A stretch of 14,097 bases of DNA from Deferribacteraceae bacterium (GTDB taxonomy: Bacteria; Chrysiogenota; Deferribacteres; Deferribacterales; JAISNW01): the NCBI GenBank assembly GCA_031285415.1, contig JAITWF010000126.1, forward strand, positions 1 through 14,097, read 5' to 3'. The translations under genes and the position numbers were made by a program. A model generated the notes under the pieces. That model saw only the letters and a program-made list of their open reading frames with translations. It was not told the origin of the DNA and did no database searches. This document shows, in pieces, positions 1-14,097 of the stretch. Within the stretch, counting starts at the first letter, position 1, and every line of letters starts with the position of its first letter.

Positions 1-1645
1 TGCCCTCTGGGTCTACAGCATGAACAGCGCAAGCTATGCATGGGTCGAAAGAGTGGATTGTACGGATAACTTCCAACGGTTTGTGCTCATCAGCGATAGG
101 GTTGCCAAGTAGAGACGCCTCGTATGGGCTAGCCACGTTAGCAGCGTCTTTAGGGCCTGCATTCCATGTAGATGGAACAACAGCCTGATAGTTAGCAATT
201 TTGCCATCTTCGATAACGATCCAGTGTGATAGGAAACCACGAGGAGCTTCCAACATACCAACGCCTTCGAATCTGCCTTTAGGGAACTCTGTTACGTGGT
301 TAGCGTATGTCTGATCCCCATTAGCGATGTTTGCACACAACATATCGATGCTCTCGATAGCTCTGTCAGCCATGATCGAGCAACGGATCGCTCTTGCAGC
401 ATGACGACCTAGTGTCGAGTGGAGCTGTGCAGGCTTCAACTTAGCAGCAGAAAGTGCGCCGTTCACGAGGCCAACAGTTTTCTGGTCGCCAGCTGTGTAT
501 GCAGCAAGGATCTGTGCCAAAGGTCCAACCTGATAAGGTTTGCCATTATAGCGAGGAGCCTTACACCATGTATACTTGCCATTATCTTCAAAATCAGTGT
601 ACTTAGGCTCTGATTTACCCTTATATGGGTGAAGGTTTGTAGCCTCTGTGTACCATGCGTGAGCAGTGTCCTCTGACATGCCGTTACGGAATGCAGCGTT
701 GTTCCAGTCTTTCAGCTCTGTAAATGCGCCCTCAGTGATCAAGCCGCCTTTATCAAGGAACGCTGAATTTTTGGTATCAGTTGGGAACTCTGGAACTGAC
801 ATATAGTTCGTAACGCCAGCACCGTAGCTAAACCACTCAGGGTAGAAGCTAGCAACTGCAAGAACGTCTGGTATATAAACTTTGTTTACAAACTCTTGAG
901 CTTTCAACACATTCTCTCTAACAAGAGCGATGCGCTCAAAGTTTAGAGTAGCAGGGTTGTCTACATTAATAGCTGTAGCAACACCACCAACGCAAAGGTT
1001 CTGGATGTGTGGCTCTTTACCGCCAAGAACTGCAACAGCTTGAGAAGCCATACGCTGATAGTCAAGTGCTTTTAGGTAGTGAGAGAACGCAATCAGGTTA
1101 ACCTCTGGTGGAAGCTTCATTGCAGGGTGACCCCAGTAAGCGTTGCCGAAGATACCGAGTTTGCCACGCTGTACGAAAGCAGCAAGACGCTCTTTCGCAG
1201 CGGTGAACTCATGCACGTTGTTGCCAGACCAGTCAGAGTAGCCCTGTGCGATCTGTGCAGCTTTTGCAGGATCAGCTTTCAGAGCAGATACTATATCAAC
1301 CCAGTCTAGTGCAGATAGGTGATAGAAGTGAACTATGTGGTCTTGCACGCAGTGTGCAGATGTAATAATGTTACGGATGTACTGAGCGTTAAGAGGGATC
1401 TCAACTTTCAGAGCGTCCTCAACTGCACGTACAGAGGCGAGCGCATGAGTGGTTGTGCAAACGCCGCAGAAGCGTTGTGCGAAAACCCATGCATCACGAG
1501 GGTCTCTGCCTTGCAATATTGTTTCGATACCACGAAACATCTGTGCAGACGACCAAGCTTTTGTTACCTTTCCCCCGCCTACTTCAACGTCTACCCTAAG
1601 GTGACCTTCTATCCTTGTAACTGGATCTACTTTAATTCTAGCCAT
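1..1645 (-). CDS. hybC: [NiFe] hydrogenase large subunit (HybC-like), 3' end truncated by the window edge
   Basis: Minus-strand ATG at 1645 gives MARIKVDPVTRIEGHLR, the canonical large-subunit N-terminus. The L1 motif RDAWVFAQRFCGVCTTTHAL lies around 1440-1500. Translating 100..2 gives ...HSFDPCIACAVH-AVDPEG, the C-terminal DPCxxCxxH Ni-binding motif (Cys, so not a NiFeSe enzyme) plus the start of the protease-cleaved extension. The reading frame is continuous over the whole span. RBS AGGAG lies 7 nt upstream (1652-1656). Confidence 0.93.
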   Translation of the reverse strand, partial: MARIKVDPVTRIEGHLRVDVEVGGGKVTKAWSSAQMFRGIETILQGRDPRDAWVFAQRFCGVCTTTHALASVRAVEDALKVEIPLNAQYIRNIITSAHCVQDHIVHFYHLSALDWVDIVSALKADPAKAAQIAQGYSDWSGNNVHEFTAAKERLAAFVQRGKLGIFGNAYWGHPAMKLPPEVNLIAFSHYLKALDYQRMASQAVAVLGGKEPHIQNLCVGGVATAINVDNPATLNFERIALVRENVLKAQEFVNKVYIPDVLAVASFYPEWFSYGAGVTNYMSVPEFPTDTKNSAFLDKGGLITEGAFTELKDWNNAAFRNGMSEDTAHAWYTEATNLHPYKGKSEPKYTDFEDNGKYTWCKAPRYNGKPYQVGPLAQILAAYTAGDQKTVGLVNGALSAAKLKPAQLHSTLGRHAARAIRCSIMADRAIESIDMLCANIANGDQTYANHVTEFPKGRFEGVGMLEAPRGFLSHWIVIEDGKIANYQAVVPSTWNAGPKDAANVASPYEASLLGNPIADEHKPLEVIRTIHSFDPCIACAVHAVDPEG

Positions 1646-1668
1646 TTATATTCTCCTCGATTATTAAA

Positions 1669-2844
1669 TTAATGCGCCCCTGCTGCGTGTGCTTTCGGCA
1701 GCAGTTTTAGCAATCTTGAAAGTATGATGTATGCCAATACTTCAAGAGCTATAAATCCATATGTAAGCATAAATTCAACTACAGATGGGAAGTATGGATT
1801 CCACTCGTCACCAGGGTTGAAGCCTACAAGGTATACGTTCATACGATACAAGCCGCCGCCGAAGCAGAGCATCATAGCCATAAAGAACGCTTTTCTTGGA
1901 GTCAGTTTCGTTGCAAACATAACTATCGGAATCACTATCAGTGCCGTCTCTATCCAGAACATTGCTGAATGGAAGCCCGATGTGAATAGGTAGCCAATTT
2001 TGCCACCGACTACAAGGCTGATAACACGAATAGCTAGCCAGAATGCGCCAACGAATGGGATGAAGCGAGCGATCTCCAACGCTTCATACTCGTATGGGCG
2101 TTTGAAACCTGCTGACGATAGACCAACTTCAAACTGTACGATAGATAGACCCATAAGTAGGGCGTTCGATACGAACAGAAGTGGTAGAAAGTTTGTCTGC
2201 CAGAGTGGGTGCAGTTTGTATCCAGTGATGATAAATAGCGAGCCAAGGGACGACTGGTGCATAGTAGGCAGAGTCATACCAAGAGCGATGATAAATATCA
2301 GCACTTTGTCGAGTTTAGGAGCTACAAATAGAGCCATGCTTTTAAAGAAGCCGTCTTTAAATGTTGCAAGTTTCTCGAGAACTGCTGGGAGAAACTCGAT
2401 AATAAGGATACAGGTATACGCCATAACGCAGAGCGCAACCTCAAACATGATCGAGTTTGGCTGCCACTGTGATGGAACGAAGAAGTTGTAAACGTTCCAG
2501 TAACGGCCTATATCGATAATAACGGATGTACCAGCAAGGGCATAGCCAAACATACTGGCAACGACCGCAGAGCGGATCATTGGGTGGTATTTCCAACCAT
2601 TTAAGATATAGCAGATAATTGCAAGTGCGTAACCGCCGCAGGCAAATGCTGTACCAATAGAAACGTCATACGCAAGCCATACCCCCCAAGGGTAGCCGTC
2701 GTTAAGATTTGATACTGCGCCGATGCTTGTAACAAAGCGGTAGCCTGCTACTGCAAAGGCAAATGCAACGAGCAACGCAAGCACAACTGTCACAGGTGTG
2801 ATCAGTTTCCCCGGTGCTTGAACATAATCATCATGATGGCTCAT
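1669..2844 (-). CDS. hybB: Hydrogenase-associated integral membrane subunit, NrfD/PsrC family (HybB-like, presumed quinone-interacting)
   Basis: 391 aa, about 10 hydrophobic helices. Motifs GYPWGVW, GTAFACGG, IDIGRYWN and MHQSSLGSL align colinearly with E. coli HybB as I recall it. It shows ATGA start/stop overlap with the upstream hybA (2841-2844). Confidence 0.85.
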   Translation of the reverse strand: MSHHDDYVQAPGKLITPVTVVLALLVAFAFAVAGYRFVTSIGAVSNLNDGYPWGVWLAYDVSIGTAFACGGYALAIICYILNGWKYHPMIRSAVVASMFGYALAGTSVIIDIGRYWNVYNFFVPSQWQPNSIMFEVALCVMAYTCILIIEFLPAVLEKLATFKDGFFKSMALFVAPKLDKVLIFIIALGMTLPTMHQSSLGSLFIITGYKLHPLWQTNFLPLLFVSNALLMGLSIVQFEVGLSSAGFKRPYEYEALEIARFIPFVGAFWLAIRVISLVVGGKIGYLFTSGFHSAMFWIETALIVIPIVMFATKLTPRKAFFMAMMLCFGGGLYRMNVYLVGFNPGDEWNPYFPSVVEFMLTYGFIALEVLAYIILSRLLKLLPKAHAAGAH

Positions 2845-3776
2845 GCGTGACCTCCTTTGTGATCATTATTCCTCTCGTCCTTGTCACGCTTAAACTGATG
2901 TTTCAGAGCGATCGCACATAGTGTGACATATAGAGCGGCAGGAGCTGCCATCCATTTGTATATTGTGTGCTGAATAGTTTCAGACTCTGTAGCATACGAG
3001 TAGTCAGGAAGAGTTGGCATGCCAAGTTTTTCAAAGTCAACTTTAGCTATGTATATAACGTTTGTGCCGCCATATTCATGCTCGCCGTAGACTTTATCTT
3101 GGAAGTAGTAGCCAGGCTTCTCTGCGATTCTACGTTTTGCTTCCGCCATAAGGTCGGTGCGTTTGCCGTAGATAACAGCTTTAACAGGGCAAGTTTCAAC
3201 GCAAGATGGCATACCTTTTGTTTTAAGGTTTGTCTCTCTGCAAAGCTCGCATTTAACGATTTTTGGGAATGTTTCATGCCATTCCCAAGATGGAACGTTG
3301 AATGGGCAAGCCATCTGGCAGTAGCGGCAACCGATACAGATCCCTTTATCGTACTCAACGATACCGGTCTCTGGGTTTTTTGTCATCGCTTTTACAGGGC
3401 ATGCAGATACGCAACCAGGTGCGTTACAGTGCATACACTGACGTTTGATGAATGCATACTCTGATTTATTTTCAGGGTTCTGATACATCTTAATAATATT
3501 TTTCGTACGATAATCAAGCTCTTGTACGTTCGCCCATCTTACTTCAGCGGTATCTGCAGGTGCAAGAGAGACGGTATCGTCTAGATTAAAGTTTGAATTA
3601 CGGCAAGCAGTAACACACGCCTGACAGCCCACGCAAAGTGAGGAATCGTATAGCATTCCTACTTCGTCTGGACCGAAAGTTATGGCTTTGCTCGCATGAG
3701 CCGCAACAGGGGAGAGCGCAAGAGCCCCCGCACCGATAGCGGCAGCTTTCATAAAGCCGCGTCTTGTACTTTTCAT
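2841..3776 (-). CDS. hybA: Periplasmic 4x[4Fe-4S] ferredoxin-like electron-transfer subunit with Tat signal and C-terminal membrane anchor (HybA-like)
   Basis: The N-terminus MKSTRRGFMKAAAIGAGALALSPVAAHA is a twin-arginine signal. There are four Cys clusters (CVGCQACVTAC, CMHCNAPGCVSACP, CIGCRYCQMACP, CELC...CVETCP). A hydrophobic C-terminal helix (AAPAALYVTLCAIAL) is present. AGGAG RBS lies 9 nt upstream. Strong colinear similarity to E. coli HybA as I recall it. Confidence 0.9.
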   Translation of the reverse strand: MKSTRRGFMKAAAIGAGALALSPVAAHASKAITFGPDEVGMLYDSSLCVGCQACVTACRNSNFNLDDTVSLAPADTAEVRWANVQELDYRTKNIIKMYQNPENKSEYAFIKRQCMHCNAPGCVSACPVKAMTKNPETGIVEYDKGICIGCRYCQMACPFNVPSWEWHETFPKIVKCELCRETNLKTKGMPSCVETCPVKAVIYGKRTDLMAEAKRRIAEKPGYYFQDKVYGEHEYGGTNVIYIAKVDFEKLGMPTLPDYSYATESETIQHTIYKWMAAPAALYVTLCAIALKHQFKRDKDERNNDHKGGHA

Positions 3777-3781
3777 GTGCC

Positions 3782-4858
3782 TTACTCCTTAGGTAATGTT
3801 GAGCCTTTGCCGGCTGCAAATCCTAGAGCCGCACCAGCGATTGCGCCAACGCCCAACGCAGAGATTGCGCTAACTGGTTTGCCAGAAGGGGTAACCTTGG
3901 TTGGTGGGAACCAAGCTGGAGATGTAGGATCGATTATGTCTACTTTATCAAAGATAGATGTGTTGAACACAAGTCTCTCTGTGCAACCAACGCAAGGGTG
4001 ACCGATAGAAACAGGCCATGCCACGTTGTCGTTGAAGCGAAGTGTAGAGCAGTTTGCATATGTAGCTGGGCCTTTGCAGCCGAGTTCATAGAGGCAGTAG
4101 CCAAGTGCGTGGCCTTCGTCGCCGAAATCTTTCGCAAAACGACCTGCGTCGAAGTGTGGACGACGCTCGCAATGCTCGTGGATTCTACGTCCGTATGCAA
4201 ATAGAGGTCTGTTCTCTGCATCCATCTCTGGGAGCTTGCCCATTGTGAGGAAGTAGAGGATAGTAGCGATTAGGTTGTATGGGCTAGGAGGGCAACCTGG
4301 TAGGTTGATAAGAGGTCTGTCCTCAACTAGTGATGAAACGCTAACAGCGCCAGTAGGGTTTGGTGCAGCTGCCTGAACGCCACCTAGAGACGCACATGTA
4401 CCCATGCTGATTACAGCGAATGCGCCATCTGCTGCAACTCTAAGAGAGTCAACAGCCTTTGTACCGCCAACCTGGCAGTAGATACCGTTCTCTGCGAGAG
4501 GTACTGCACCTTCGCAAACAAGGATATACTTGCCTTTGTGCGCTACGATAGCGTCGTGTAGGGCTTTTTCAGCCTGCTCACCAGAACCAACCATAAGTGT
4601 CTCATGATACTCAAGATTGATAACATCCAAAAGAAGGTTCCCTAAGCCAGGGTGGCTTGAACGTAAAAGTGACTCAGAACAACCAGTGCACTCCTGAAAA
4701 TGGAGCCAAATCACTGGAGGTCTATTGTCGGATTCAGCCGCCGCAGCTACTTTTGGAATCATTGTTGCGGGTAATCCCATAACTGCAGTAACTGCCGTGA
4801 TTGCTTTCATAAAATCGCGGCGCGAGAAATCTGCCCCAAACAAGCTAGCATCTAACAT
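3782..4858 (-). CDS. hybO: [NiFe] hydrogenase small subunit with Tat signal peptide and C-terminal transmembrane anchor (HybO-like)
   Basis: The ORF track gives 3782..4936. The ATG at 4858 is preferred because it yields MLDASLFGADFSRRDFMKAITAVTAVMGLPATMIPKVAAA, a typical Tat leader with RR at residues 13-14. GGGGGA lies 5 nt upstream of it. The upstream ATG at 4936 sits inside a TATAAT hexamer. The mature protein carries RPPVIWLHFQECTGC (proximal-cluster Cys motif), GxCxxxGG and GCPP motifs, and a C-terminal hydrophobic helix SAISALGVGAIAGAALGFAAG. Confidence 0.88.
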   Translation of the reverse strand: MLDASLFGADFSRRDFMKAITAVTAVMGLPATMIPKVAAAAESDNRPPVIWLHFQECTGCSESLLRSSHPGLGNLLLDVINLEYHETLMVGSGEQAEKALHDAIVAHKGKYILVCEGAVPLAENGIYCQVGGTKAVDSLRVAADGAFAVISMGTCASLGGVQAAAPNPTGAVSVSSLVEDRPLINLPGCPPSPYNLIATILYFLTMGKLPEMDAENRPLFAYGRRIHEHCERRPHFDAGRFAKDFGDEGHALGYCLYELGCKGPATYANCSTLRFNDNVAWPVSIGHPCVGCTERLVFNTSIFDKVDIIDPTSPAWFPPTKVTPSGKPVSAISALGVGAIAGAALGFAAGKGSTLPKE

Positions 4859-4934
4859 TTTTTCCCCCAAAAGTGTTTCCGCCCAATAAGCTCGAAAAGA
4901 TAGACTCCAAGCGCAGTTGCAGGGCATAACACTC

Positions 4935-4940
4935 ATTATA
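4935..4940 (-). promoter_or_regulatory. Candidate -10 hexamer (TATAAT on the minus strand) of the hydrogenase operon promoter
   Basis: A perfect TATAAT on the minus strand sits about 80 nt upstream of the preferred hybO start (4858). The only -35-like hexamer (TTTACA) is at a 12-nt spacer, so the promoter may depend on an activator. The region is AT-rich. Confidence 0.25.
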
Positions 4941-5132
4941 TTGAACCGAGTTTGTAAAGTTTTCGGTTAATCCGAACTATACCATGTTTTTTACAAAATA
5001 CAACCTAAAATTTGCTGTCCGGTTAGTTTACCCCCTGGTCTGGCAAATGTTTCGAAGTTTGTACTATTCAAAAAGATACCAAATTGGTCTTTTTTAAGTT
5101 TGTTATAGTATATAGATTTCAGAGTGTTAATT

Positions 5133-5262
5133 ATAACCCCTCCCCCTTGGGGGGAGGGTGGCACGCAGTGTCGGGAGAGGGGATAGTTTTGAAAATATAT
5201 TATTTGATAATAAATTACAGATAACCCCTCTCCCTTGATCCCTCCCCCCAAGGGGGAGGGGA
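5133..5262. repeat. Cluster of C-run/G-run palindromic elements: two near-identical CCCTCCCCC-loop-GGGGGAGGG stem-loops plus a long-range inverted repeat GGGAGAGGGG/CCCCTCTCCC
   Basis: The stem 5138-5146 / 5150-5158 is 9 bp with loop TTG. The stem 5240-5248 / 5252-5260 is 9-10 bp with loop CAA. Both are preceded by ATAACCCCTC (5133-5142 and 5221-5230). 5173-5182 GGGAGAGGGG is the exact reverse complement of 5225-5234 CCCCTCTCCC, separated by a 42-nt AT-rich spacer. Confidence 0.7.
5138..5158 (-). terminator. Possible intrinsic terminator of the lepA-uppS-ferredoxin operon (distal GC hairpin followed by TTATAATTAA on the minus strand)
   Basis: On the minus strand the 9-bp GC stem is followed by TTATAATTAAC. 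The proximal hairpin (5240-5260) begins 17 nt after the ferredoxin stop codon but lacks a U-tract. Confidence 0.35.
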
Positions 5263-5277
5263 AGAGTAAGTTGTCAG

Positions 5278-6354
5278 CTACTTCTCAAACTTTAATAGAT
5301 CGTCGAATAGCTCTTTGAGGTTTAATGTTTTACTAGGCACTATATATCCGTAGTAGCACGATATGCGGCACATTCCGCACGATGTGCAGTTGGATGGGTT
5401 GAATAGGATCTGTTTGTCATCTTCGCTCATATGGAATGCGCCTGTAGGACACATCCGTGTGCAAACTTTGCATAGAACGCAATCTGTAGCAATCTCAAAA
5501 TTATAAAAGTATGCGCCGATACGGATCTCATCCTTTAGAAGTTTGCCGCACGAAAGGAGTGACTCGATAAGTAGTTTGCGCTTGGCTGGCACCTCCTTAG
5601 TGGTGCGAGCGGTGGTGCGAGTTGGTAGCTCTTGCGGCGTTAGCAGTGCAGCGCTCTTCACTAAGGTATCGGCGGCGTTATCTCTAAAGAAACCGAACAT
5701 TCCTCTGCGGTCTACCGTTTGCGCCATCTTAAGAGCTTTCTCCTCCTTCGGATCGGGGGCTGAAATCGGGAACTGTTTTGGAAATTTTATAGTGATACTG
5801 CTCTGCTCGTGCGTAATCTGTACGCCATCGAGATATTCAAAGTATGTAGAGAGCTTTTTTAGCTCCTCTATCTCATCAGTAACGATATCTCTGCCATATT
5901 TAGAGGCACAGGCAGTACAATCGGGCGTTTCAATTATAATCTTGCTAGCACCATGGGTGTATAGATATAGAAGATCGGGAAGCCCTATTATTCCTAGGCA
6001 CTCCATCATGGCAGCGTCGGATTTGCTCACCTTACAGCTAAGTTTAAGCTCCCCTTCGGGGGTGATCTTCCCTAGATATTCCTTTAAAAAGTTCTCATAC
6101 TCCATCTCTCGTATGTTGAAAACGCCTGTGGGGCAGATGTTAACGCAGATACCGCAGTATGTGCAACTATCCCAATCGATATTGACGGTGCTCCCTACGT
6201 CGCCCACCTTTATTGCGCCTGTAGGACAGTTGGTTTCGCATAGGTTGCATTTGGAGAGCTTGTGGCACATCTTATTGCACCGCTCGGGGCGCACCCCTAC
6301 GGCTTGACTCATCCCCACAAGCACGGAGTTGGCTAGGTTGAACTTACCGAACAT
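5278..6354 (-). CDS. Cytoplasmic polyferredoxin: N-terminal and C-terminal 2x[4Fe-4S] ferredoxin domains flanking a ~180-aa middle region of unknown function
   Basis: 358 aa with no signal peptide. Motifs are CNKMCHKLSKCNLCETNCP (atypical spacing), CTYCGICVNICP, CVLCKVCTRMCP and CTSCGMCRISCYYG, plus a CTAC pair in the middle region. The start overlaps the uppS stop by 11 nt. An alternative start is the ATG at 6312 (MSQAVGVRPERC...). Neither start has a strong SD. Confidence 0.75.
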   Translation of the reverse strand: MFGKFNLANSVLVGMSQAVGVRPERCNKMCHKLSKCNLCETNCPTGAIKVGDVGSTVNIDWDSCTYCGICVNICPTGVFNIREMEYENFLKEYLGKITPEGELKLSCKVSKSDAAMMECLGIIGLPDLLYLYTHGASKIIIETPDCTACASKYGRDIVTDEIEELKKLSTYFEYLDGVQITHEQSSITIKFPKQFPISAPDPKEEKALKMAQTVDRRGMFGFFRDNAADTLVKSAALLTPQELPTRTTARTTKEVPAKRKLLIESLLSCGKLLKDEIRIGAYFYNFEIATDCVLCKVCTRMCPTGAFHMSEDDKQILFNPSNCTSCGMCRISCYYGYIVPSKTLNLKELFDDLLKFEK

Positions 6355-7030
6355 CTATCTGCTCATCTGTTTTGCCGAAGCGACGTTGGCGATTATTAAA
6401 GCTCTCTATAGCAAGCTTTAAATCGGTGTCGCCGAAATCTGGCCAGAGTGTTTCGGTGAAGTACATCTCGGCATATGCAAGCTGCCAGAGCATAAAGTTT
6501 GATATGCGCAGCTCGCCCCCTGTGCGGATCAGCAGATCCACATCGGATAGCTCTGGATGATATAGATACTTTGCAAAGCTCTCCTCTGTAAAGTCGTCGC
6601 CACTTTCAGCCAATCGTTTCGCCGCCTGCACGATCTCGTCTCTGCCGCCGTAATCGAGCGCAATATTCAGGATCATTCCTGTATTATCAGCCGATTCAGC
6701 CATAACGGTCTCTAACGCTCTCCTTCCAGATGTTGGGATACGATCGAGTCTACCAGAGACGATAAGCTTTACATTGTTTTTGATAAGCTCTCTCGCCTCT
6801 TTGGTGATATAATCCTCTAGAAGTTTCATCAGAAAGCTGACCTCGTCCTGTGGGCGAAGCCAGTTCTCTGTGGAGAAGGCGAATAGGCTTAATATATCGA
6901 CTCCAGCGTTATCGGCAGCTCGCACGATACGAGTGACCGATTTGACACCCTCACGATGTCCCATAACTCTGGAGAGACTGCGACGCTTCGCCCACTCGCC
7001 GTTGCGATCCATTATGATTGCAATGTGCAT
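6344..7030 (-). CDS. uppS: Undecaprenyl-diphosphate synthase (cis-prenyltransferase)
   Basis: HIAIIMDRNGEWAK...FAFSTENWLRP...RTGGELRISNFMLWQ...RRFG matches the conserved UppS blocks. The ATG immediately follows the frr stop (TAAATG, same frame). The purine-rich stretch AAAGAG lies upstream. Confidence 0.9.
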   Translation of the reverse strand: MHIAIIMDRNGEWAKRRSLSRVMGHREGVKSVTRIVRAADNAGVDILSLFAFSTENWLRPQDEVSFLMKLLEDYITKEARELIKNNVKLIVSGRLDRIPTSGRRALETVMAESADNTGMILNIALDYGGRDEIVQAAKRLAESGDDFTEESFAKYLYHPELSDVDLLIRTGGELRISNFMLWQLAYAEMYFTETLWPDFGDTDLKLAIESFNNRQRRFGKTDEQIDVR

Positions 7031-7588
7031 CTATATTTCCATTAACTCTTTCTCTTTAACTGCGGTGATCTCGTCTAACGATTTGATCTGTGCGTCGGTG
7101 ATCTTCTGGATCTCATCGACTGCACGTTTTGATTCATCTTCAGAGATCGCTTTATCCTTCTCTAGCTTCTTAACTTTATCATTTGCGTCACGACGTTCGT
7201 TGCGTACGGCGATCTTTGTATCTTCGCACATCTTTTTGACTACCTTTACGAGATCTTTACGACGCTCTTCGGTAAGTCTCGGTATCGGAATGCGCACTAG
7301 TTTACCGTCATTCGATGGGTTCAGACCTAATCCGCCGTTTAATATGGCCTTTTCGATAGCAGGGATCAGTGAAGAGTCCCACGGCTGTACTGTTACCATA
7401 TGAGCGTCTGCCACATGTAGCGTGCCAACGCCAGCTAGTGGGGTTGGTGTGCCATACGCCTCTACCCTGATATTATCAAAGATCGATGTGCTGGCACGCC
7501 CAGAGCGTACAGCTTTTAGTTCGCCTTTGAAGTGCTGGATTGTTTTATCCATCTTCTCTTTCATCTCGTTGATAGTTGTTTTAGACAT
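7031..7588 (-). CDS. frr: Ribosome recycling factor
   Basis: The ORF track gives 7031..7630. The internal ATG at 7588 is preferred because AGGAG lies 8 nt upstream and it gives the typical ~185-aa RRF (MSKTTINEMKEKMDKT...). Conserved blocks GTPTPL, VRIPIPRLTEERRKDL and VRNERRDANDK are present. Confidence 0.92.
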   Translation of the reverse strand: MSKTTINEMKEKMDKTIQHFKGELKAVRSGRASTSIFDNIRVEAYGTPTPLAGVGTLHVADAHMVTVQPWDSSLIPAIEKAILNGGLGLNPSNDGKLVRIPIPRLTEERRKDLVKVVKKMCEDTKIAVRNERRDANDKVKKLEKDKAISEDESKRAVDEIQKITDAQIKSLDEITAVKEKELMEI

Positions 7589-7633
7589 GTTTATATTCTC
7601 CTGATTGATTGCATTTATGTACCTAATCACGTC

Positions 7634-7695
7634 ATTGCGGACTTGATCCGCAATCCAGAATTAGTAGATCTGGACTGCGGCTCGTAGGCCGCAGT
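7634..7695 (-). other. Two perfect 8-bp stem-loops in the pyrH-frr intergenic spacer
   Basis: ATTGCGGA-cttga-TCCGCAAT (7634-7654) and ACTGCGGC-tcgtag-GCCGCAGT (7674-7695). Neither is followed by a U-run on the transcribed (minus) strand. Confidence 0.5.
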
Positions 7696-7704
7696 GACGG
7701 AGGT

Positions 7705-8409
7705 TTATTTTACTGTTGTTCCGACCGCTTCGCCCTTTACTACTCTTAATAGGCTTCCAGCTTCCATCATATTATATACCACTATCGGAATATTATTATC
7801 CATACACATGCTGATTGCGGTGGAGTCCATCACATTCAACCTCTTTGTGAGTACATCGATATACGAAACGGTATCATACTTAGTCGCTGTTGGGTCTTTC
7901 TTAGGGTCTGCGGTGTATACACCATCCACCTTTGTTGCCTTGATCACTACGTCGGCATTGATCTCGGACGCCCTCAATGTGGCTGTAGTGTCGGTGGTGA
8001 AGTAAGGGTTGCCTGTGCCAGCGGCGAAGATAACGACACGCCCCTTCTCGAGGTGCCTCATCGCTCTACGTCTGATAAACGGCTCTGCCACCTGACGCAT
8101 TTCGATAGCCGACTGTACACGTGTAGGGATTCCAGCCTTCTCTAGAGCGTCTTGCAGGGCGAGCGAATTGATCACCGTAGCAAGCATACCCATATAATCG
8201 GCAGATACTCTATCCATCCCCTGTGCAGAGCCTGACACTCCACGGAAGATATTGCCACCGCCGATCACAAGCCCTATCCGCACGCCAGAATCAAATAGTG
8301 TGCGGATCTCCTGCGCAATATAGCGCAAAGTTTCGCTCTCGACGCCGTACTGTTGGCCACCCATGAGTGCTTCGCCAGACAGCTTTAATAGGACTGTTTT
8401 ATATTTCAT
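7705..8409 (-). CDS. pyrH: UMP kinase
   Basis: [18 protein letters not shown]..., GGGNIFRG and the overall 234-aa length are typical of PyrH. GAGG lies 7 nt upstream, inside the lepB 3' end. Confidence 0.93.
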
Positions 8410-8413
8410 TGAA

Positions 8414-9001
8414 CTACCTCGTTATATTTAGCAAACGATCCCAACGTACCGACTTCAAGTTCAACATGCCGCCAGCAGGATCTTTCGACCAGTATATTAT
8501 AACTGACTTCCCTTTGAAGCTATCTCTAGGCACCAGTCCCCAATATCGGCTATCTGCGCTGGAGTCACGGTTATCACCCATCATGAAGTAATGCCCCTCT
8601 GGCACCTTAAACTCAGGCACATTGTCGGCGATAGGCCCCGATGGATAGTTTCGCAGCTGTACGTAATCCTCTTGCACCGCCGCACCGTTGCGATAGAGCT
8701 TCTTATCGACGATCTTTATCGTATCGCCCGGTTCACCGATTACACGCTTGATAAAATCTTTTCCAGGCTCTAGCGGATACTCAAATACTGCGATCTCGCC
8801 GAACTTTGGATCCCCTAAGAGGTAGCTAATCTTGCTAGCTATGATATGATCCCCAATCTGAAGCGTCTCAAGCATAGAGCCAGAGGGGATCACATATGCG
8901 CTCATTACAAATGTACGAATAATCATTGCGATCACAAACGCTACTACGAGCGAATCGAAAAAATCTCTCATCCCCTTCTTGGGTTCTTTTTCTTTAGACA
9001 T
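8414..9001 (-). CDS. lepB: Signal peptidase I
   Basis: An N-terminal TM helix is followed by [10 protein letters not shown] (catalytic Ser box), a Lys box and [16 protein letters not shown]. The start overlaps the lepA stop (TAATG). Confidence 0.9.
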
Positions 9002-10806
9002 TAATTTTCGTCTCCTATCTTCAATACAGCAAGGAAGGCGTCTTGCGGTAGGTCGATCTTGCCGATCGATTTCATGCGCTTCTTCCCCTCCTTCTGCTTC
9101 TCTAAAAGTTTACGTTTACGAGAGATATCGCCGCCGTAGCACTTTGCGATAACGTCTTTGCGGTACGCCTTGACGGTAGAGCGAGCGATAACCTTCGAGC
9201 CGATCGCCGCCTGAATCGCCACCTCAAACATCTGGCGTGGGATAACGTCTTTCATTCGCTCTACAAGCTCTCTCCCCTTGTACTCCGCCTGATCTTTATG
9301 CACGATAATACTTAATGCGTCCACAGGCTCTTTATTTATAAGTATATCTAGCTTCACAAGGCTGCCTGGGCGAAACTCTGAAAATTCGTAGTCGAATGAG
9401 GCATATCCTCGTGAGATCGATTTCAGTTTATCGTAAAAGTCTGTAACGACCTCCATCAGCGGTATATCGTACTCTAATATAGAGCGAGCGGCACTCATAT
9501 ATTTCATATTCGTCTGTATGCCACGTCGAGCGTTCAGAAGCTGCATAACGCTACCCACATATTCGGCAGGTAGGATTATCGTAGATGATATATACGGCTC
9601 CTCTACCTTTTCGCACTCTGACGGTGGCGGCAGGAGTGCAGGGTTGTCGATATCAAAGACTTCGCCGTTCAGTTTGGTGATACGGAATACAACCGTTGGG
9701 GCGGTGGAGATAAGGTCGAGATTAAACTCACGCTCGAGCCTCTCCTGTATGATCTCCATATGTAGAAGCCCCAAGAAGCCACAACGGAAGCCGAATCCTA
9801 ACGCTTGAGAGCTTTCAGGCTCAAAGGTGACGGCACTATCATTTAATATAAGCTTCTCTAGAGCGTCTCTTAACGTCTGATATTCGCTTGGGTCTATAGG
9901 GTAAAGCCCACAGAATACGACAGGCTTAACATGTTTAAATCCTGGAAATGGTGTATCAGTAGGTCTTTTAACGTGAGTGACGGTATCGCCGATCTTCACC
10001 TCATGCACCGATTTGATACTTGCGGTGATGAATCCTACCTCGCCAGCTGAGAGCTCCTTTAAGGCGATAGGGGATGGAGTGAATGAGCCCATCTCGATAA
10101 TCTCGTACTCCTTTCTGGTAGACATCAGCTTGATCTTGTCGCCTGGGCGCATAGTCCCCTCTACCATACGTACAAGGACTACTACGCCTCTATATGCGTC
10201 GTACCATGAGTCGAAGATCATTGCTTTGAGTGGATTTTCAGAGTCTCCCGATGGTGCAGGCACCTTTTTGACTATAGACTCTAGTATCTCACGAGTGCCG
10301 ATCTTCTCCTTTGCGCTAGCAAGAACGGCTTCGGAGGCGTCGATACCGATAGCGTCCTCGACCTCCTTCTGCACACGCTCTGGGTCTGCACTTGGTAGAT
10401 CGATCTTGTTTATAACGGTGATCAGCTCTAAGTTTTGGTCGACCGCCATGAATGCATTTGCGATCGTCTGCGCCTCTACACCCTGAGAGGCGTCCACTAC
10501 TACCAATGCCCCCTCACAGGCGGCAAGGCTTCGGGATACCTCATAGGTAAAGTCGACATGCCCTGGGGTGTCGATAAGGTTGAGCTGGTAGGTCTTTCCA
10601 TCATCTGCTGTATATGTAAGGCGAGCTGTCTGCGCCTTGATAGTGATCCCTCGCTCTCGCTCGATATCCATGCTATCAAGTACCTGCGCCTTCATCTTGC
10701 GCTCCTCAATCCCTCCAGTATACTCTATGATCCGATCGGCAAGGGTCGACTTGCCGTGGTCTATGTGCGCTATAATACTAAAGTTGCGTATCAATTTATT
10801 TTGCAT
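9001..10806 (-). CDS. lepA: Elongation factor 4 (translational GTPase LepA)
   Basis: [25 protein letters not shown] (G1 motif), [13 protein letters not shown] and the 601-aa length are typical of LepA. AAGAGG lies 9 nt upstream. Confidence 0.95.
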
Positions 10807-10895
10807 TAAATGAACCTCTTAAACTCGTTAAGATACACTAATACGCACCTATATGGCAAGCGATTTTACAGAAAAACTAATTGACGTTTACATTT

Positions 10896-10904
10896 TGTTA
10901 TAAT
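10896..10904 (+). promoter_or_regulatory. Extended -10 promoter element (TGtTATAAT) for the EncFtn-encapsulin operon
   Basis: TGTTATAAT at 10896-10904 lies 39 nt upstream of the EncFtn ATG. TAAGGAGAT RBS sits at 10929-10937. TTGACG at 10881-10886 is only 12 nt from the -10, so it is probably not a functional -35. Confidence 0.45.
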
Positions 10905-10942
10905 ACCATATGGCAAGTTTTAGTCTATAAGGAGATAAGATT

Positions 10943-11299
10943 ATGCCGAGTTTTGCGAACCCATTTCAGGGAAATGTGAACAGGAAGGTGACGAAGCTGG
11001 AGCTTATGCAAGCTCTTCGTATCGATATAGCGTCGGAGCTTGAGGCGATCTATCTATACGATGCGCACGCACTATCAACTGACGATCCGATCGCTAAAAG
11101 GGTGCTAGAGGATATCCGTGACGAGGAGAAGCAGCATGTGGGCGAGTTAATGACGCTTCTGCGCTATCTGGATCCAGGATTTGCTGCACTTTTAGCCGAT
11201 GGCGAGGGCGAGGTGAAGGAGATGATGGCGGATCTCGGTATAAAGGAGCGTCAAGTGGGCGATCTCACGATCGGTAGCCTTATAAAAGAGGATGATTAA
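10943..11299 (+). CDS. Encapsulated ferritin-like cargo protein (EncFtn) with C-terminal encapsulin targeting peptide
   Basis: 118 aa. ELEAIYLYDAH...DP...RDEEKQHVGE gives the Glu/Glu/His pattern (E32, E62, H65 in this ORF's numbering) of the EncFtn ferroxidase site. The C-terminus ...GDLTIGSLIKEDD matches the encapsulin cargo-loading consensus (L/I)xIGSL(K/I). It is immediately followed by the shell gene. Confidence 0.85.
   Translation: MPSFANPFQGNVNRKVTKLELMQALRIDIASELEAIYLYDAHALSTDDPIAKRVLEDIRDEEKQHVGELMTLLRYLDPGFAALLADGEGEVKEMMADLGIKERQVGDLTIGSLIKEDD
11261..11296 (+). other. Encapsulin cargo-loading (targeting) peptide coding segment at the EncFtn C-terminus
   Basis: DLTIGSLIKEDD. The G-S-L-I core resembles known targeting peptides (e.g. 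SLGIGSLK). Confidence 0.7.
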
Positions 11300-12092
11300 T
11301 ATGGATTATTTAGGAAGAGAGGGTGCGCCTATCTCCGCAGATCTGTGGCGCAATATAGATAATACAGTGGTCGATGTGGCAAAGAAATCATTAAAGGTAC
11401 GGCGGTTTCTCCCCCTTGTATCTGTAGGGACGGAGGCGCAATATGCAAAGATAGAGCGGTTTGACAAGGGTGAGGAGATTGAGGAGTGGTTCGTAAAGAC
11501 TACTAACCGCCAACTCGTCGAGATTCCGCAGATATATAGCGATTTTTGGCTCAACTGGCGAGATCTGAACGGTGCTATAGATCTCTCCCCCTGCATGCGT
11601 GCCGCAACGGTACTCTCCAAACATGAGGATGAGATGATCTTCTACGGAATTCCTGCTTTAAAGCTGGAGGGGCTATTGACGGTGAAAGGCTCACAGCAGG
11701 TAAAGCGTGGCAACTGGGGGGAGGGTGAAAACGCCTTTGCAGATGTAGCTACTGGGATAGCAATGCTTGAAAAGGCTGGACGTAGCGGCAGATACGCCCT
11801 TGTGGTAAGCCCCGATCTATACATGCAGCTACAGCGCATTCAGGCAGGTACTGGAGTTTTAGAGAGTAAGCGCATTCAGAAGCTCGTCGGCTCTGATATT
11901 ATAAAATCTACCGCTCTAAAGGATAAGACGGCATTCTTAGTATGCGCAGAGAGCTACTGCATGGATCTAGCTGTGGGGCAGGATATAACGACCGCATACC
12001 TTGAATGCGTCGACCTAAACCATCATTTCAGAGTGATGGAGACCGCTCTTTTAAGAATTAAATGCCCAGATGCTATTGTTTTATTCACATAG
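11292..12092 (+). CDS. Family-1 encapsulin shell protein (HK97-fold, linocin M18-like)
   Basis: 266 aa (263 aa if the start is the ATG at 11301, which has AAGAGGA 8 nt upstream). It aligns colinearly with T. maritima encapsulin as I recall it: SADLWRNIDNTVVDVAKKSLKVRRF, HEDEMIFYG, ALVVSPDLY, LAVGQDITTAYLE and a C-terminal ...AIVLFT. It overlaps the cargo gene stop. Confidence 0.88.
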   Translation: MINMDYLGREGAPISADLWRNIDNTVVDVAKKSLKVRRFLPLVSVGTEAQYAKIERFDKGEEIEEWFVKTTNRQLVEIPQIYSDFWLNWRDLNGAIDLSPCMRAATVLSKHEDEMIFYGIPALKLEGLLTVKGSQQVKRGNWGEGENAFADVATGIAMLEKAGRSGRYALVVSPDLYMQLQRIQAGTGVLESKRIQKLVGSDIIKSTALKDKTAFLVCAESYCMDLAVGQDITTAYLECVDLNHHFRVMETALLRIKCPDAIVLFT

Positions 12093-12112
12093 TTGTACTA
12101 TAGTTTCGTATT

Positions 12113-12982
12113 ATGAAACGTGATACATTAATAAAAACCCTGCTGACGGCGGCTATCCTCCTAGGTGGGGTCTTATCATTCTTTATACTGCCAAATCTCT
12201 TTGGGCTATCTGCCGCTGATGATAGCGGCTACTACAGATCCCTACAGGAGGCACTCGACAGCCGTCTAGCCTCCGCAAGCCTATTCTTTATGACTACCAA
12301 ACTCGTAAGCGGAATTATCGCATTCTCGCAAGATGTCAATGTAGACGCTAGCGTGGTGCTTGCAGGTATCGACGTATCGCCACTTATGGTGCTACAGCCT
12401 GTTGGCAGTACTATCAACAAGATCTCCGATCTGTTTCTGGTAGCAATGGGGGCGATAGTGCTTGAGAAGGTGGTGATGATCGCTGGCGGCTGGCTGTCGT
12501 TCAAGATCTTCTTCCCTATCGCTGCCGCTATCGGGGCGGTCTCCCTTTGGGGGCGGCATAGGGTAAACACTCGAAAGGCAGCGATCGGTATGCTTATCAT
12601 CGGTATCGTTTCGTGGGGGGCGGTGCCGCTATCTATAATGACCTCTACCATGCTAGAGCGTTACTTTATGGGAGATATAATGACGCTCTCCGCCGATAGG
12701 GTGGAGAAGAATGCTTCGGAGCTGGAGGTTATCCAGAGCGACCTCACCGACCCTTCCGAATGGGGAGTGGGGGCGGAGAAGAGCTCATTTCTAGATAAAC
12801 TCAAGGTGCCGAACGTCGGACTAAAGATAAACGAGGTGCTGACGGCGATCTCATCGAAAACTGAAAATATCGTGAAAGATCTCGTGAACGCCTTTATAGT
12901 GCTTGTTATTACTACCTTAATCCTGCCGATCGGCACTATCTTTGTGCTCTGGTTTGTGTTGAGAGGGCTGACTAGCCAATGA
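12113..12982 (+). CDS. Uncharacterised polytopic membrane protein (about 5 N-terminal TM helices, a ~70-aa soluble acidic segment, and a C-terminal TM helix)
   Basis: 289 aa with no recognisable catalytic motif. It lies 20 nt downstream of the encapsulin gene with no terminator between them. Its stop overlaps the aroK start (ATGA). No SD is evident upstream. Confidence 0.6.
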   Translation: MKRDTLIKTLLTAAILLGGVLSFFILPNLFGLSAADDSGYYRSLQEALDSRLASASLFFMTTKLVSGIIAFSQDVNVDASVVLAGIDVSPLMVLQPVGSTINKISDLFLVAMGAIVLEKVVMIAGGWLSFKIFFPIAAAIGAVSLWGRHRVNTRKAAIGMLIIGIVSWGAVPLSIMTSTMLERYFMGDIMTLSADRVEKNASELEVIQSDLTDPSEWGVGAEKSSFLDKLKVPNVGLKINEVLTAISSKTENIVKDLVNAFIVLVITTLILPIGTIFVLWFVLRGLTSQ

Positions 12983-13464
12983 TCTTCTTAACAGGTTTCC
13001 TATGCACAGGCAAAAGTACCGTTGGTAAAGCACTCGCCGCACGGCGTAATCTACCATTTACCGACTTGGATACAGAGATAGAACGTCTCGCCGATCTGCC
13101 AGTGGCGGAGATCTTTCAGCGGTACGGTTCGGAGCGGTTTCGCAAGCTTGAGTCAGAGGCACTCAAAACTGTGCAATCTGGCGTTGTCGCCTGCGGCGGC
13201 GGCACTATTACAATCAGAGAGAATTTAAGGTGGATGAGGGCAAATGGCAAGATCCTTCTACTAACCGCTACCCCTACAGAGATCTTTAAACGATTAAGTA
13301 GTGACTACGCTCGGCCGCTTATGGGTAGCGCACCCACAGAGATGATGGTGAAAAGGCTCTTATTTGCTAGAGCTTGCCACTATACACAGGCGGATCTCCT
13401 TATAGATACAACGAACGTCAATATCGATACGATATTAGAGAGGATAGATGAGCATTATCAGTGA
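12979..13464 (+). CDS. aroK: Shikimate kinase
   Basis: Walker A GFLCTGKST at residues 5-13, a DLD motif, a GGG lid, and the ~160-aa size. Confidence 0.9.
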   Translation: MIFLTGFLCTGKSTVGKALAARRNLPFTDLDTEIERLADLPVAEIFQRYGSERFRKLESEALKTVQSGVVACGGGTITIRENLRWMRANGKILLLTATPTEIFKRLSSDYARPLMGSAPTEMMVKRLLFARACHYTQADLLIDTTNVNIDTILERIDEHYQ

Positions 13465-14097
13465 ACAGTCGGCAGCAGAGTTTGTAAAGGGCTCTGGTGC
13501 CTTTATGATCGCCGATCGGCGAGTGGCGGAGCTATATCCAGAGTGCCTTTCAGAGAGAAGCTTTATCGTGGATAGCGGTGAGGAGTTGAAAAGCTTTGCA
13601 AAGGTTGAGACGTTTATCAAGTGGCTTGCCGATAATGGCTGCAATAGGGGTAGCGAGATTGTTGCGCTTGGCGGTGGCACCGTTGGCGATATGGCAGGCT
13701 TCGCCGCCGCAATATATATGCGTGGGGTAAAGTTTCATAATATCCCCACGACGCTCCTATCGATGGTAGACTCCGCTATCGGTGGCAAGACGGCGGTGAA
13801 CGTAGGCAGTATTAAAAATCTCGTAGGGGCGTTTCATCAACCTACTAACGTAATCATAGATATAGCTTTTTTGAAAAGTATCACCGATAATGACTTTCTT
13901 TCAGGCTTTGGCGAGATAATTAAAACCGCTGCAATCGCTGATCAGTCACTATTTAATATGCTTTTAAATGAGCGAGATCGAGTGCTACGTAGGGAGATCG
14001 GCGATATTATTACACGAGTATGCAATATAAAGGCGGATACGGTAAGGAGAGACCCATACGATAATGGTATACGAGTGATACTGAACGCTGGACATAC
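13448..14097 (+). CDS. aroB: 3-dehydroquinate synthase (3' end truncated by the window edge)
   Basis: Translation from the ATG at 13448 gives MSIISEQ...VALGGGTVGDMAGFAAA...DSAIGGKTAVN...ILNAGH, the NAD-binding and active-site blocks of AroB. A stop lies immediately upstream in frame. It overlaps aroK by 17 nt. Confidence 0.88.
   Translation, partial: MSIISEQSAAEFVKGSGAFMIADRRVAELYPECLSERSFIVDSGEELKSFAKVETFIKWLADNGCNRGSEIVALGGGTVGDMAGFAAAIYMRGVKFHNIPTTLLSMVDSAIGGKTAVNVGSIKNLVGAFHQPTNVIIDIAFLKSITDNDFLSGFGEIIKTAAIADQSLFNMLLNERDRVLRREIGDIITRVCNIKADTVRRDPYDNGIRVILNAGH

Follow-up and report, generated by a model that had tools for sequence, protein, structure and literature searches.

What are the dense C- and G-rich palindromes that separate a ferredoxin-type 4Fe-4S gene from a NiFe hydrogenase operon in a Deferribacteraceae genome, and do they serve the hydrogenase? 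The locus lies on a 14,097-bp contig of a metagenome-assembled genome (MAG), the whole of which is called the window here. A preliminary description of this DNA had reported two hairpin copies and an inner inverted repeat around a 42-nt AT-rich spacer between these same neighbours, and we recovered all of these features, and the flanking genes, as it gave them. It had proposed as possible roles a compound terminator, a genome-specific REP/MITE-like element, a protein-binding palindrome, or a slippage-prone phase-variable tract affecting hydrogenase expression. We found that the cluster is probably a convergent pair of BoxC / PIT / TMECO short interspersed intergenic repeats. The C/G palindromes of the window would thus be members of a repeat family known since 1992, and to read them as a new RNA, a phase switch or a regulator of the hydrogenase would be mistaken. 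What is new here is the host family, Deferribacteraceae, together with the unusual loop lengths, while the kind of repeat itself is already known.

The word ATAACCCCTC[C/T]CCCTTG stands at 5133-5149 and recurs at 5221-5237 with 16 of 17 positions identical. Two identical 9-bp hairpins, CCCTCCCCC/GGGGGAGGG with a 3-nt loop, lie at 5138-5146/5150-5158 and at 5240-5248/5252-5260. A point absent from the preliminary description is that 5137-5158 and 5240-5261 are perfect reverse complements over 22 nt, so that the whole forms a near-palindrome of 125 bp, ending at 5137 and 5261. Within it, the inner inverted repeat joins GGGAGAGGGG (5173-5182) to CCCCTCTCCC (5225-5234) across the 42 AT-rich nt. 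Read in its proper orientation, each half consists of a C-arm, a loop, a G-arm, a second loop and a G-block that mirrors the G-arm, and the two units face each other across the spacer (Table 1). The second loop of unit 1, TGGCACGCAGTGTC (14 nt, 5159-5172), carries a C(GCA)G mini-hairpin. The homopolymeric G/C runs, described earlier as long, are only 4-6 nt, the longest reaching 6 nt. On the minus strand, unit 2 (5225-5249) contains the sole canonical G-quadruplex motif of the window, GGGGGGAGGGATCAAGGGAGAGGGG, under the pattern (G3+ N1-7)x4; unit 1 is not a canonical motif of this type because of its 14-nt loop.

The cluster exceeds chance expectation. CCCTCYCCC occurs seven times in the window, six of these inside 5138-5260, while shuffles gave 0.11 and none of 200 reached seven. 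Folding of the minus-strand transcript, which is the sense strand of the upstream gene, had been suggested as a check, and it returned a strong structure for the pair (-78.6 kcal/mol, z = -8.2). Fold z-scores were -8.2 and -7.7 for RNA and -9.9 and -8.1 for DNA. As computed for single-stranded DNA, each unit forms a hairpin of about -11 kcal/mol and the pair forms one long hairpin, based on the 22-bp arms, of -43 to -45 kcal/mol. A triplex-rule finder returned no match in 200 simulated windows.

The BoxC repeat of E. coli was described by Bergler (1992), and later appeared as PIT elements (Hoyne & Maher 2000, 2002) and as the TMECO triplex motif (Holder et al. 2015, PMC4666352). TMECO is written 5'-CCCTCNCCC N3-6 GGGNGAGGG N3 GGGNGAGGG and was counted 3610 times in 262 proteobacterial genomes, and its isolated E. 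coli BoxC strand forms a triplex in vitro (PMC4666352). We re-implemented the published class II triplex rule (ITxF-like, from PMC4666352) as a script, which looks for three consecutive blocks, a C-rich pyrimidine stem, the purine block that pairs with it by Watson-Crick rules and another purine block mirroring this second one, with at most one mismatched triad, a first loop of 3-6 nt and a second loop of 3 nt (TMECO pattern) or 1-6 nt (ITxF rule). The script found genuine E. coli BoxC units in the hrpB-mrcB gap and downstream of fabI; in E. coli K-12 the hrpB-mrcB gap reads CCCTCTCCC TGT GGGAGAGGG CC GGGGTGAGGG, then 14 nt, then the reverse complement of a second unit. Both window units are built of the three blocks, 9 nt each (CCCTCCCCC / GGGGGAGGG / GGGAGAGGG), with one mismatch. 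Unit 2 reads as CCCTCNCCC-N3-GGGNGAGGG-N5-GGGNGAGGG and conforms to the ITxF-like class II rule with 9-nt stems, loops of 3 and 5 nt and one mismatch, and unit 1 conforms to it only when a 14-nt second loop is permitted.

An independent line of evidence came from an nhmmer profile built from 93 units of many phyla, with the window and E. coli excluded. It aligned to unit 2 over its full length (5262-5224, minus strand, E=3.4e-5, 20.2 bits), in the same range as the E. coli BoxC units (20.2-25.1 bits), and to the hairpin part only of unit 1 (E=0.005). No Rfam family reached gathering score, either for the window region or for 18 unit-carrying loci; weak Rfam matches of the whalefall-1 and miRNA type were set aside as chance.

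We then scanned one genome per species with the bare hairpin core as query, and at least 120 stretches matched; the counts that follow are for the matches listed. The core occurs in Alpha-, Beta-, Gamma- and Deltaproteobacteria, Chloroflexi, Nitrospirae, Planctomycetes, Bacteroidota, Peribacteria, Chlamydiae and others, several of the other genomes carry it more than once, and it lies beside unrelated genes in more than 100 genomes. The idea of a genome-specific REP/MITE-like element therefore held as to a dispersed palindromic repeat but not as to genome specificity, since BoxC/PIT/TMECO repeats extend from E. coli to Chloroflexi and Nitrospirae. Although the query pattern contained no third block, 101 of 144 hairpins had an extra G block no more than 7 nt away on one side but not on the other, and it was always the mirror of the G-arm and never a direct copy (74 GGG[AT]GGGGG vs 0 GGGGG[AT]GGG). 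Units oriented by this block have a TTGA-like loop and end in GGG[T/A]GGGGG-TGA. Neighbouring units at most 150 nt apart were convergent in 27 cases, divergent in 22 and tandem in three, with convergent gaps of 19-123 nt, and the convergent layout of the window, with its 42-nt gap, is typical of the family.

The long second loop of unit 1 also has counterparts. A form in which the second loop is a mini-hairpin closed by C(GNA)G appeared in 12 of 142 genome matches and 19 of 136 viral matches listed, with second loops of 13-25 nt that are often closed by C(GCA)G or C(GAA)G; T-GGTCGC-GCA-GCGACC is one example, and the window counterpart is T-GGCAC-GCA-GTGTC. Published search rules, which allow second loops of at most 6 or 10 nt, would overlook most units of this subtype.

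Comparison with named systems pointed the same way. The window pair shares with BoxC/PIT/TMECO the three-block order CCCTCNCCC - loop - GGGNGAGGG - loop - mirror GGGNGAGGG, the intergenic position and the frequent pairing of opposite-strand units tens of nt apart, and E. coli too shows the convergent layout (PMC4666352; PMC5100583). It differs in its stems (CCCTCCCCC/GGGGGAGGG in the window, CCCTCTCCC/GGGAGAGGG in E. coli), in second loops of 5 and 14 nt where TMECO has 3, in two units that share one hairpin where E. coli pairs type A with type B, in an AT-rich spacer, and in its host, a Deferribacteraceae MAG, whereas TMECO was reported from proteobacterial genomes. HPG1/HPG2, the 'G-quadruplex-hairpin-duplex switch', are E. 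coli BoxC elements viewed as G-quadruplexes and form opposite-strand pairs (Kaplan et al. 2016, PMC5100583). They resemble the window in having a C-rich tract about 3 nt upstream of four G tracts, as in the canonical G3+N1-7 motif of unit 2, but unit 1, with a middle loop of 14 nt, has no such canonical motif, and the window is known from its sequence alone. A recurrent intergenic multi-copy motif in Methanomicrobiaceae archaea, in which hairpin, triplex and G-quadruplex compete (PMC8044849), has the blocks GGGGGGTGGGGG, GGGGAGGGGG and CCCCCTCCCC in common with the window, but in mirrored order: in the archaea the G block comes before the G-arm, with the C-arm on the 3' side, whereas the window runs C-arm, G-arm, G block.

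REP/BIME/REPIN sequences (RAYT/Y1-mobilised) are likewise short GC-rich extragenic palindromes of alternating orientation that pair into a larger hairpin and lie between operons. It has been proposed that REPs help to protect mRNA 3' ends. However, the window has no 5' GTAG/GTGG tetranucleotide and REPs have no third mirror block, and the BoxC-type core is near-identical across phyla whereas REPs are species-specific. A GTAG-type tetranucleotide at the foot of the palindrome was found neither in the window, where the flanks are ATAA and CTTC, nor as a conserved feature of oriented units elsewhere. We know of no RAYT for BoxC-type units.

Several points weigh against the assignment to BoxC / PIT / TMECO. 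The second loops of 5 and 14 nt are off the strict TMECO N3, that of unit 1 goes beyond the published loop limit, and the third block has one mismatch. The property of being repeated is demonstrated for the family and not for the host genome, of which the 14-kb contig is the part at hand, and no unit was found in ~40 kb of the closest relatives or in ~46 kb of more distant relatives. Moreover, triplex formation by the family has been demonstrated in vitro alone, on isolated single strands, and in vivo dimethyl sulfate (DMS) footprinting in E. coli gave it no support (PMC4666352). A 3'-end barrier and instability effects are likewise only proposed for the pair.

All genes of the window from 10806 down to 1 lie on the minus strand, in the order lepA, lepB, pyrH, frr, uppS and 4Fe-4S protein, followed after a 419-nt gap by a hybO-A-B-C-like NiFe hydrogenase operon. 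The repeat pair is intergenic: on one side of the composite (5137-5261) is the stop codon at 5278, separated from it by 16 nt, and on the other the start codon at 4858.

Table 1. Coordinates of the repeat pair, of neighbouring features in the window, and of loci in other genomes (L numbers) referred to in the text.
Feature	Position	Strand	Description
Whole composite	5137-5261		Convergent (-> <-) BoxC/PIT/TMECO-type unit pair (probable assignment); 125-bp near-palindrome; outer 22-nt arms 100% complementary
Unit 1, long-loop subtype	5138-5182	+	CCCTCCCCC - TTG - GGGGGAGGG - TGGCACGCAGTGTC - GGGAGAGGGG
Unit 1, parts	5138-5146; 5147-5149; 5150-5158; 5159-5172; 5173-5182	+	C-arm; loop; G-arm; second loop; mirror G-block
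AT-rich spacer	5183-5224		42 nt; small AT palindrome at 5194-5216 inside
Unit 2, short-loop type	5225-5261	-	CCCTCCCCC - TTG - GGGGGAGGG - ATCAA - GGGAGAGGGG
Unit 2, parts	5260-5252; 5251-5249; 5248-5240; 5239-5235; 5234-5225	-	C-arm; loop TTG; G-arm; loop ATCAA; G-block
4Fe-4S cluster protein	5278-6354	-	358 aa; end gene of the lepA-lepB-pyrH-frr-uppS run
Putative hydrogenase-operon promoter	4976-5003	-	TTGTAT 5003-4998 and extended -10 TGgTATAGT 4984-4976; predicted
Conserved promoter-like/leader region, window	4859-5005	-
Conserved promoter-like/leader regions, relatives	L367 5340-5505; L368 960-1118; L370 1930-2088
NiFe hydrogenase small subunit	3782-4858	-	With TAT signal; opening gene of the hybO-A-B-C-like operon
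HybA-like gene	2841-3776	-
NrfD/HybB-like gene	1669-2844	-
NiFe hydrogenase large subunit	2-1645	-	548 aa, RIEGH... to ...DPCIACAVH; reaches the contig end without stop codon
Long-loop subtype loci	L015, L033, L049, L062, L077, L091, L103, L105, L114; L251, L255, L291, L314; window 5159-5172
~170-bp element loci	L125, L131, L132, L135, L138, L142, L152, L154, L162, L164
~170-bp element loci, further	L166, L168, L183, L184, L195, L209, L213, L226, L231, L234

To place the pair relative to hydrogenase control, we compared four loci from three Deferribacteraceae relatives, in which the operon is the same and the small subunits are 76-79% identical. The window and the relatives have in common a promoter-like TTG...TGnTAnnnT and a leader of ~110 nt, the site being conserved in three related loci, and this conservation ends at ~5005. 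Measured from the pair, the conserved promoter-like -35 is 134 nt downstream and the start codon 279 nt away. In the four loci of the relatives we found neither the CCCTCYCCC motif nor any profile match. Given that the relatives keep promoter and leader without the element, the pair is outside the conserved control region and dispensable for it, and by this comparison it does not appear to be a dedicated hydrogenase regulator. The genes upstream of the operon also differ from those in the window, with DUF554 in two loci and a dUTPase in two. In the conserved promoter and leader region the relatives carry a 7-bp inverted repeat, ATAACAA-GTGT-TTGTTAT, of which the window has a degenerate form, ATAATGAGTGTTAT, only; it may be an operator or leader structure. 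A sigma-54 promoter, hinted at by TGGCACG in loop 2, was rejected, as there is no -12 GC element and the strand is wrong.

The pair coincides with a change in composition. Tetranucleotide correlation across a break at ~5000-5300 was r 0.43 (1-5000 vs 5300-14097), compared with 0.81 for a control within the right block. Segments of 2.5 kb left of ~5000 resembled the left block (correlation 0.66-0.69) more than the right one (0.38-0.51), and the reverse held for segments to the right (0.74-0.80 for the right block, 0.30-0.43 for the left). The hydrogenase genes have a GC content at third codon positions (GC3) of 0.42-0.47, against 0.48-0.59 for the housekeeping genes. This break, together with the differing upstream genes of the relatives, suggests that the hydrogenase operon was acquired or relocated. 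The pair is lineage-specific and stands at the synteny and composition junction between the two operons. In the literature TMECO loci are more rearranged than control intergenic sites (PMC4666352), and a break at the pair is consistent with that published tie of triplex motifs to rearranged loci. Homologues of the Fe-S protein are at most 55% identical and not syntenic, and were therefore useless for an empty-site test.

A metagenome scan with the window's exact 22-mer gave matches, among those listed, mostly in organisms of 60-70% GC, none of them with the window's loops or spacer. In this material we observed a dispersed palindromic element of ~170 bp, with at least 23 distinct copies on 65-70% GC contigs of samples Ga0194112/113/125. 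Its ends are conserved (GTACGCGTTTAGC... / ...GCTAAACAGGTAC), its flanks are unrelated, and at its core is a pair of BoxC-type units that includes the exact 22-mer of the window. It has the look of a MITE/REPIN-like element that carries BoxC-type pairs. Viral and proviral contigs of IMG/VR contained the core in at least 120 stretches (L247-L366), and 51 of 136 listed matches had the mirror third block; one viral contig (L251, 6850-9205) has five units within 2.4 kb.

These observations bear on the alternative that survives best, namely that the window pair is itself a MITE- or REPIN-like non-autonomous element, a 125-bp palindrome with 22-bp terminal inverted repeats inserted by a transposase encoded elsewhere. 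Its terminal arms are perfect (22/22), suggesting recent origin or homogenisation, it is missing from the related loci, and it sits at the compositional and synteny break. Elsewhere a unit pair is the core of the ~170-bp palindrome, units occur on many IMG/VR contigs, and orientation alternates near-exclusively, like that of REPs in BIMEs. However, no target-site duplication was found at the borders, where the left flank ends in ATTATAA and the right border reads AAGAGTAAG (right flank beginning AAGAGTA), no second copy is visible in the 14-kb window, and the palindrome simply stops at 5137/5261. No transposase family turned up among the ten Pfam-scanned ORFs (open reading frames; 1669-10806, with ORFs at 10943-13464 outside the scan), the GTAG hallmark of REPs is missing, and the literature reports no link of E. 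coli units to mobile elements (PMC4666352) or to phages. We regard such an insertion as possible, though distinctly less than an even prospect.

A more general proposal, on which we are more tentative still, is that BoxC-type pairs form the core of an element which, being non-autonomous, would depend on a widely distributed enzyme and would move as single-stranded DNA folded into hairpin, mini-hairpin and third block. The perfect arms, the ~170-bp composites in other metagenome organisms and the abundance on viral contigs hint at it. Mobility of this kind would account for a near-identical core from Proteobacteria to Chloroflexi, Nitrospirae and the Candidate Phyla Radiation (CPR), for the presence on viral contigs, and for ~170-bp palindromic elements with conserved ends. 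If it is true, the window pair marks the joint between the hydrogenase operon and the housekeeping operon.

The pair might instead act mainly as a transcription terminator or 3'-end stabiliser of the lepA-lepB-pyrH-frr-uppS-FeS transcript, insulating the hydrogenase operon. It begins 16 nt after the Fe-S stop codon on the sense strand, its RNA fold is the strong one given above, and a consensus scan marks the hairpin 5158-5138(-) with the tail GUUAUAAUUA. The next promoter-like site comes 134 nt further on, and no other structured terminator was detected downstream of the pair (z = -0.3). However, no U tract follows the stop-proximal hairpin, where the sequence is AUCAAGGG, the U run of the distal tail GUUAUAAUUA is interrupted, and the scan found one site where 0.7 were expected. 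The conserved mirror G block would be left unexplained. The family occurs in all gene contexts, and its orientation relative to genes, 16 same vs 9 opposite, is a weak signal from a crude ORF caller that cannot be trusted at high-GC loci. No strand bias is seen in TMECO (PMC4666352), and in E. coli neither terminator nor promoter activity was found for PIT elements, according to the summary of Hoyne & Maher (2002) given in PMC4666352. The pair is a poor canonical terminator, which leaves the earlier idea of a compound terminator weak, and we consider a terminating role unlikely.

An assembly artefact, in which two genomic regions or two organisms were wrongly joined at a repeat that they share, is very improbable. 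The sharp break at ~5000-5300 would fit it, as would the hairpin 22-mer common to many metagenome organisms among the matches listed, and a MAG scaffold (L027, 7045-7364) with a duplicated unit, identical flanks and a run of N between. A cross-phylum chimera was rejected as unlikely because the best matches of both blocks are to Deferribacteraceae. The junction also keeps an intact stop-to-promoter layout, and the conserved promoter and leader run into unique sequence before the pair is reached. A shared word of 22 nt is, moreover, shorter than the usual final assembly k-mers. As a separate observation, assemblers seem to break or duplicate at BoxC-type repeats, as in L027.

Least credible of all is an operator, protein-binding palindrome or phase-variable tract tuning hydrogenase expression: the position upstream of the operon, the symmetric repeated G/C boxes and the homopolymer runs had invited it, but the pair is remote from the conserved -35 and start codon, related Deferribacteraceae keep promoter-like site and leader without it, the motif adjoins unrelated genes in the genomes listed, and no sigma-54-type site accompanies the TGGCACG of loop 2. 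Phase-variable tracts are usually G/C homopolymers of at least 8 nt in a coding region or promoter spacer, and with runs of at most 6 nt, 134 nt upstream of the promoter-like site and far from promoter or coding sequence, phase variation is unlikely.

For the preferred reading, a convergent BoxC-type pair, we infer how it might fold in vivo, affect RNA or genome stability and have arrived. As single-stranded DNA, a unit could form a GC hairpin, a purine-motif intrastrand triplex or a G-quadruplex, and two opposite units could form a long hairpin or a cruciform-capable palindrome. The pair would then be a repeat that forms structure and is dispensable, having either landed in the gap that separates two transcription units or been left behind there. 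In the lepA...Fe-S transcript, its very stable stem-loop at the 3' end might serve as a REP-like barrier or pause, and in DNA it might be an obstacle to replication or recombination that favours rearrangement at the junction. Such replication-obstacle structures plausibly fit, without proving, the position at a rearrangement junction. No function is assigned to BoxC/PIT/TMECO in the literature (PMC4666352), and the family is unexplained after three decades. Leads on its spread and on rearrangement are offered by the cross-phylum and viral mirror-block units, the long-loop subtype, the near-exclusive inverted orientation, the ~170-bp composites and the position at the break.

Finally, some gene calls around the pair deserve correction. 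The longest ORF of the hydrogenase small subunit, 3782-4936, begins 26 codons too early; the true start is likely the ATG at 4858, with a GGGGGA ribosome-binding site before it and the TAT motif RRDFMK just after, and the JGI call (P0017) is even shorter, at 342 aa. An 86-aa ORF with a TTG start (4991-5251, minus strand) crosses the repeat pair, has no Pfam family match and is almost certainly spurious. BoxC-type repeats are a likely source of low-complexity 'hypothetical proteins'.

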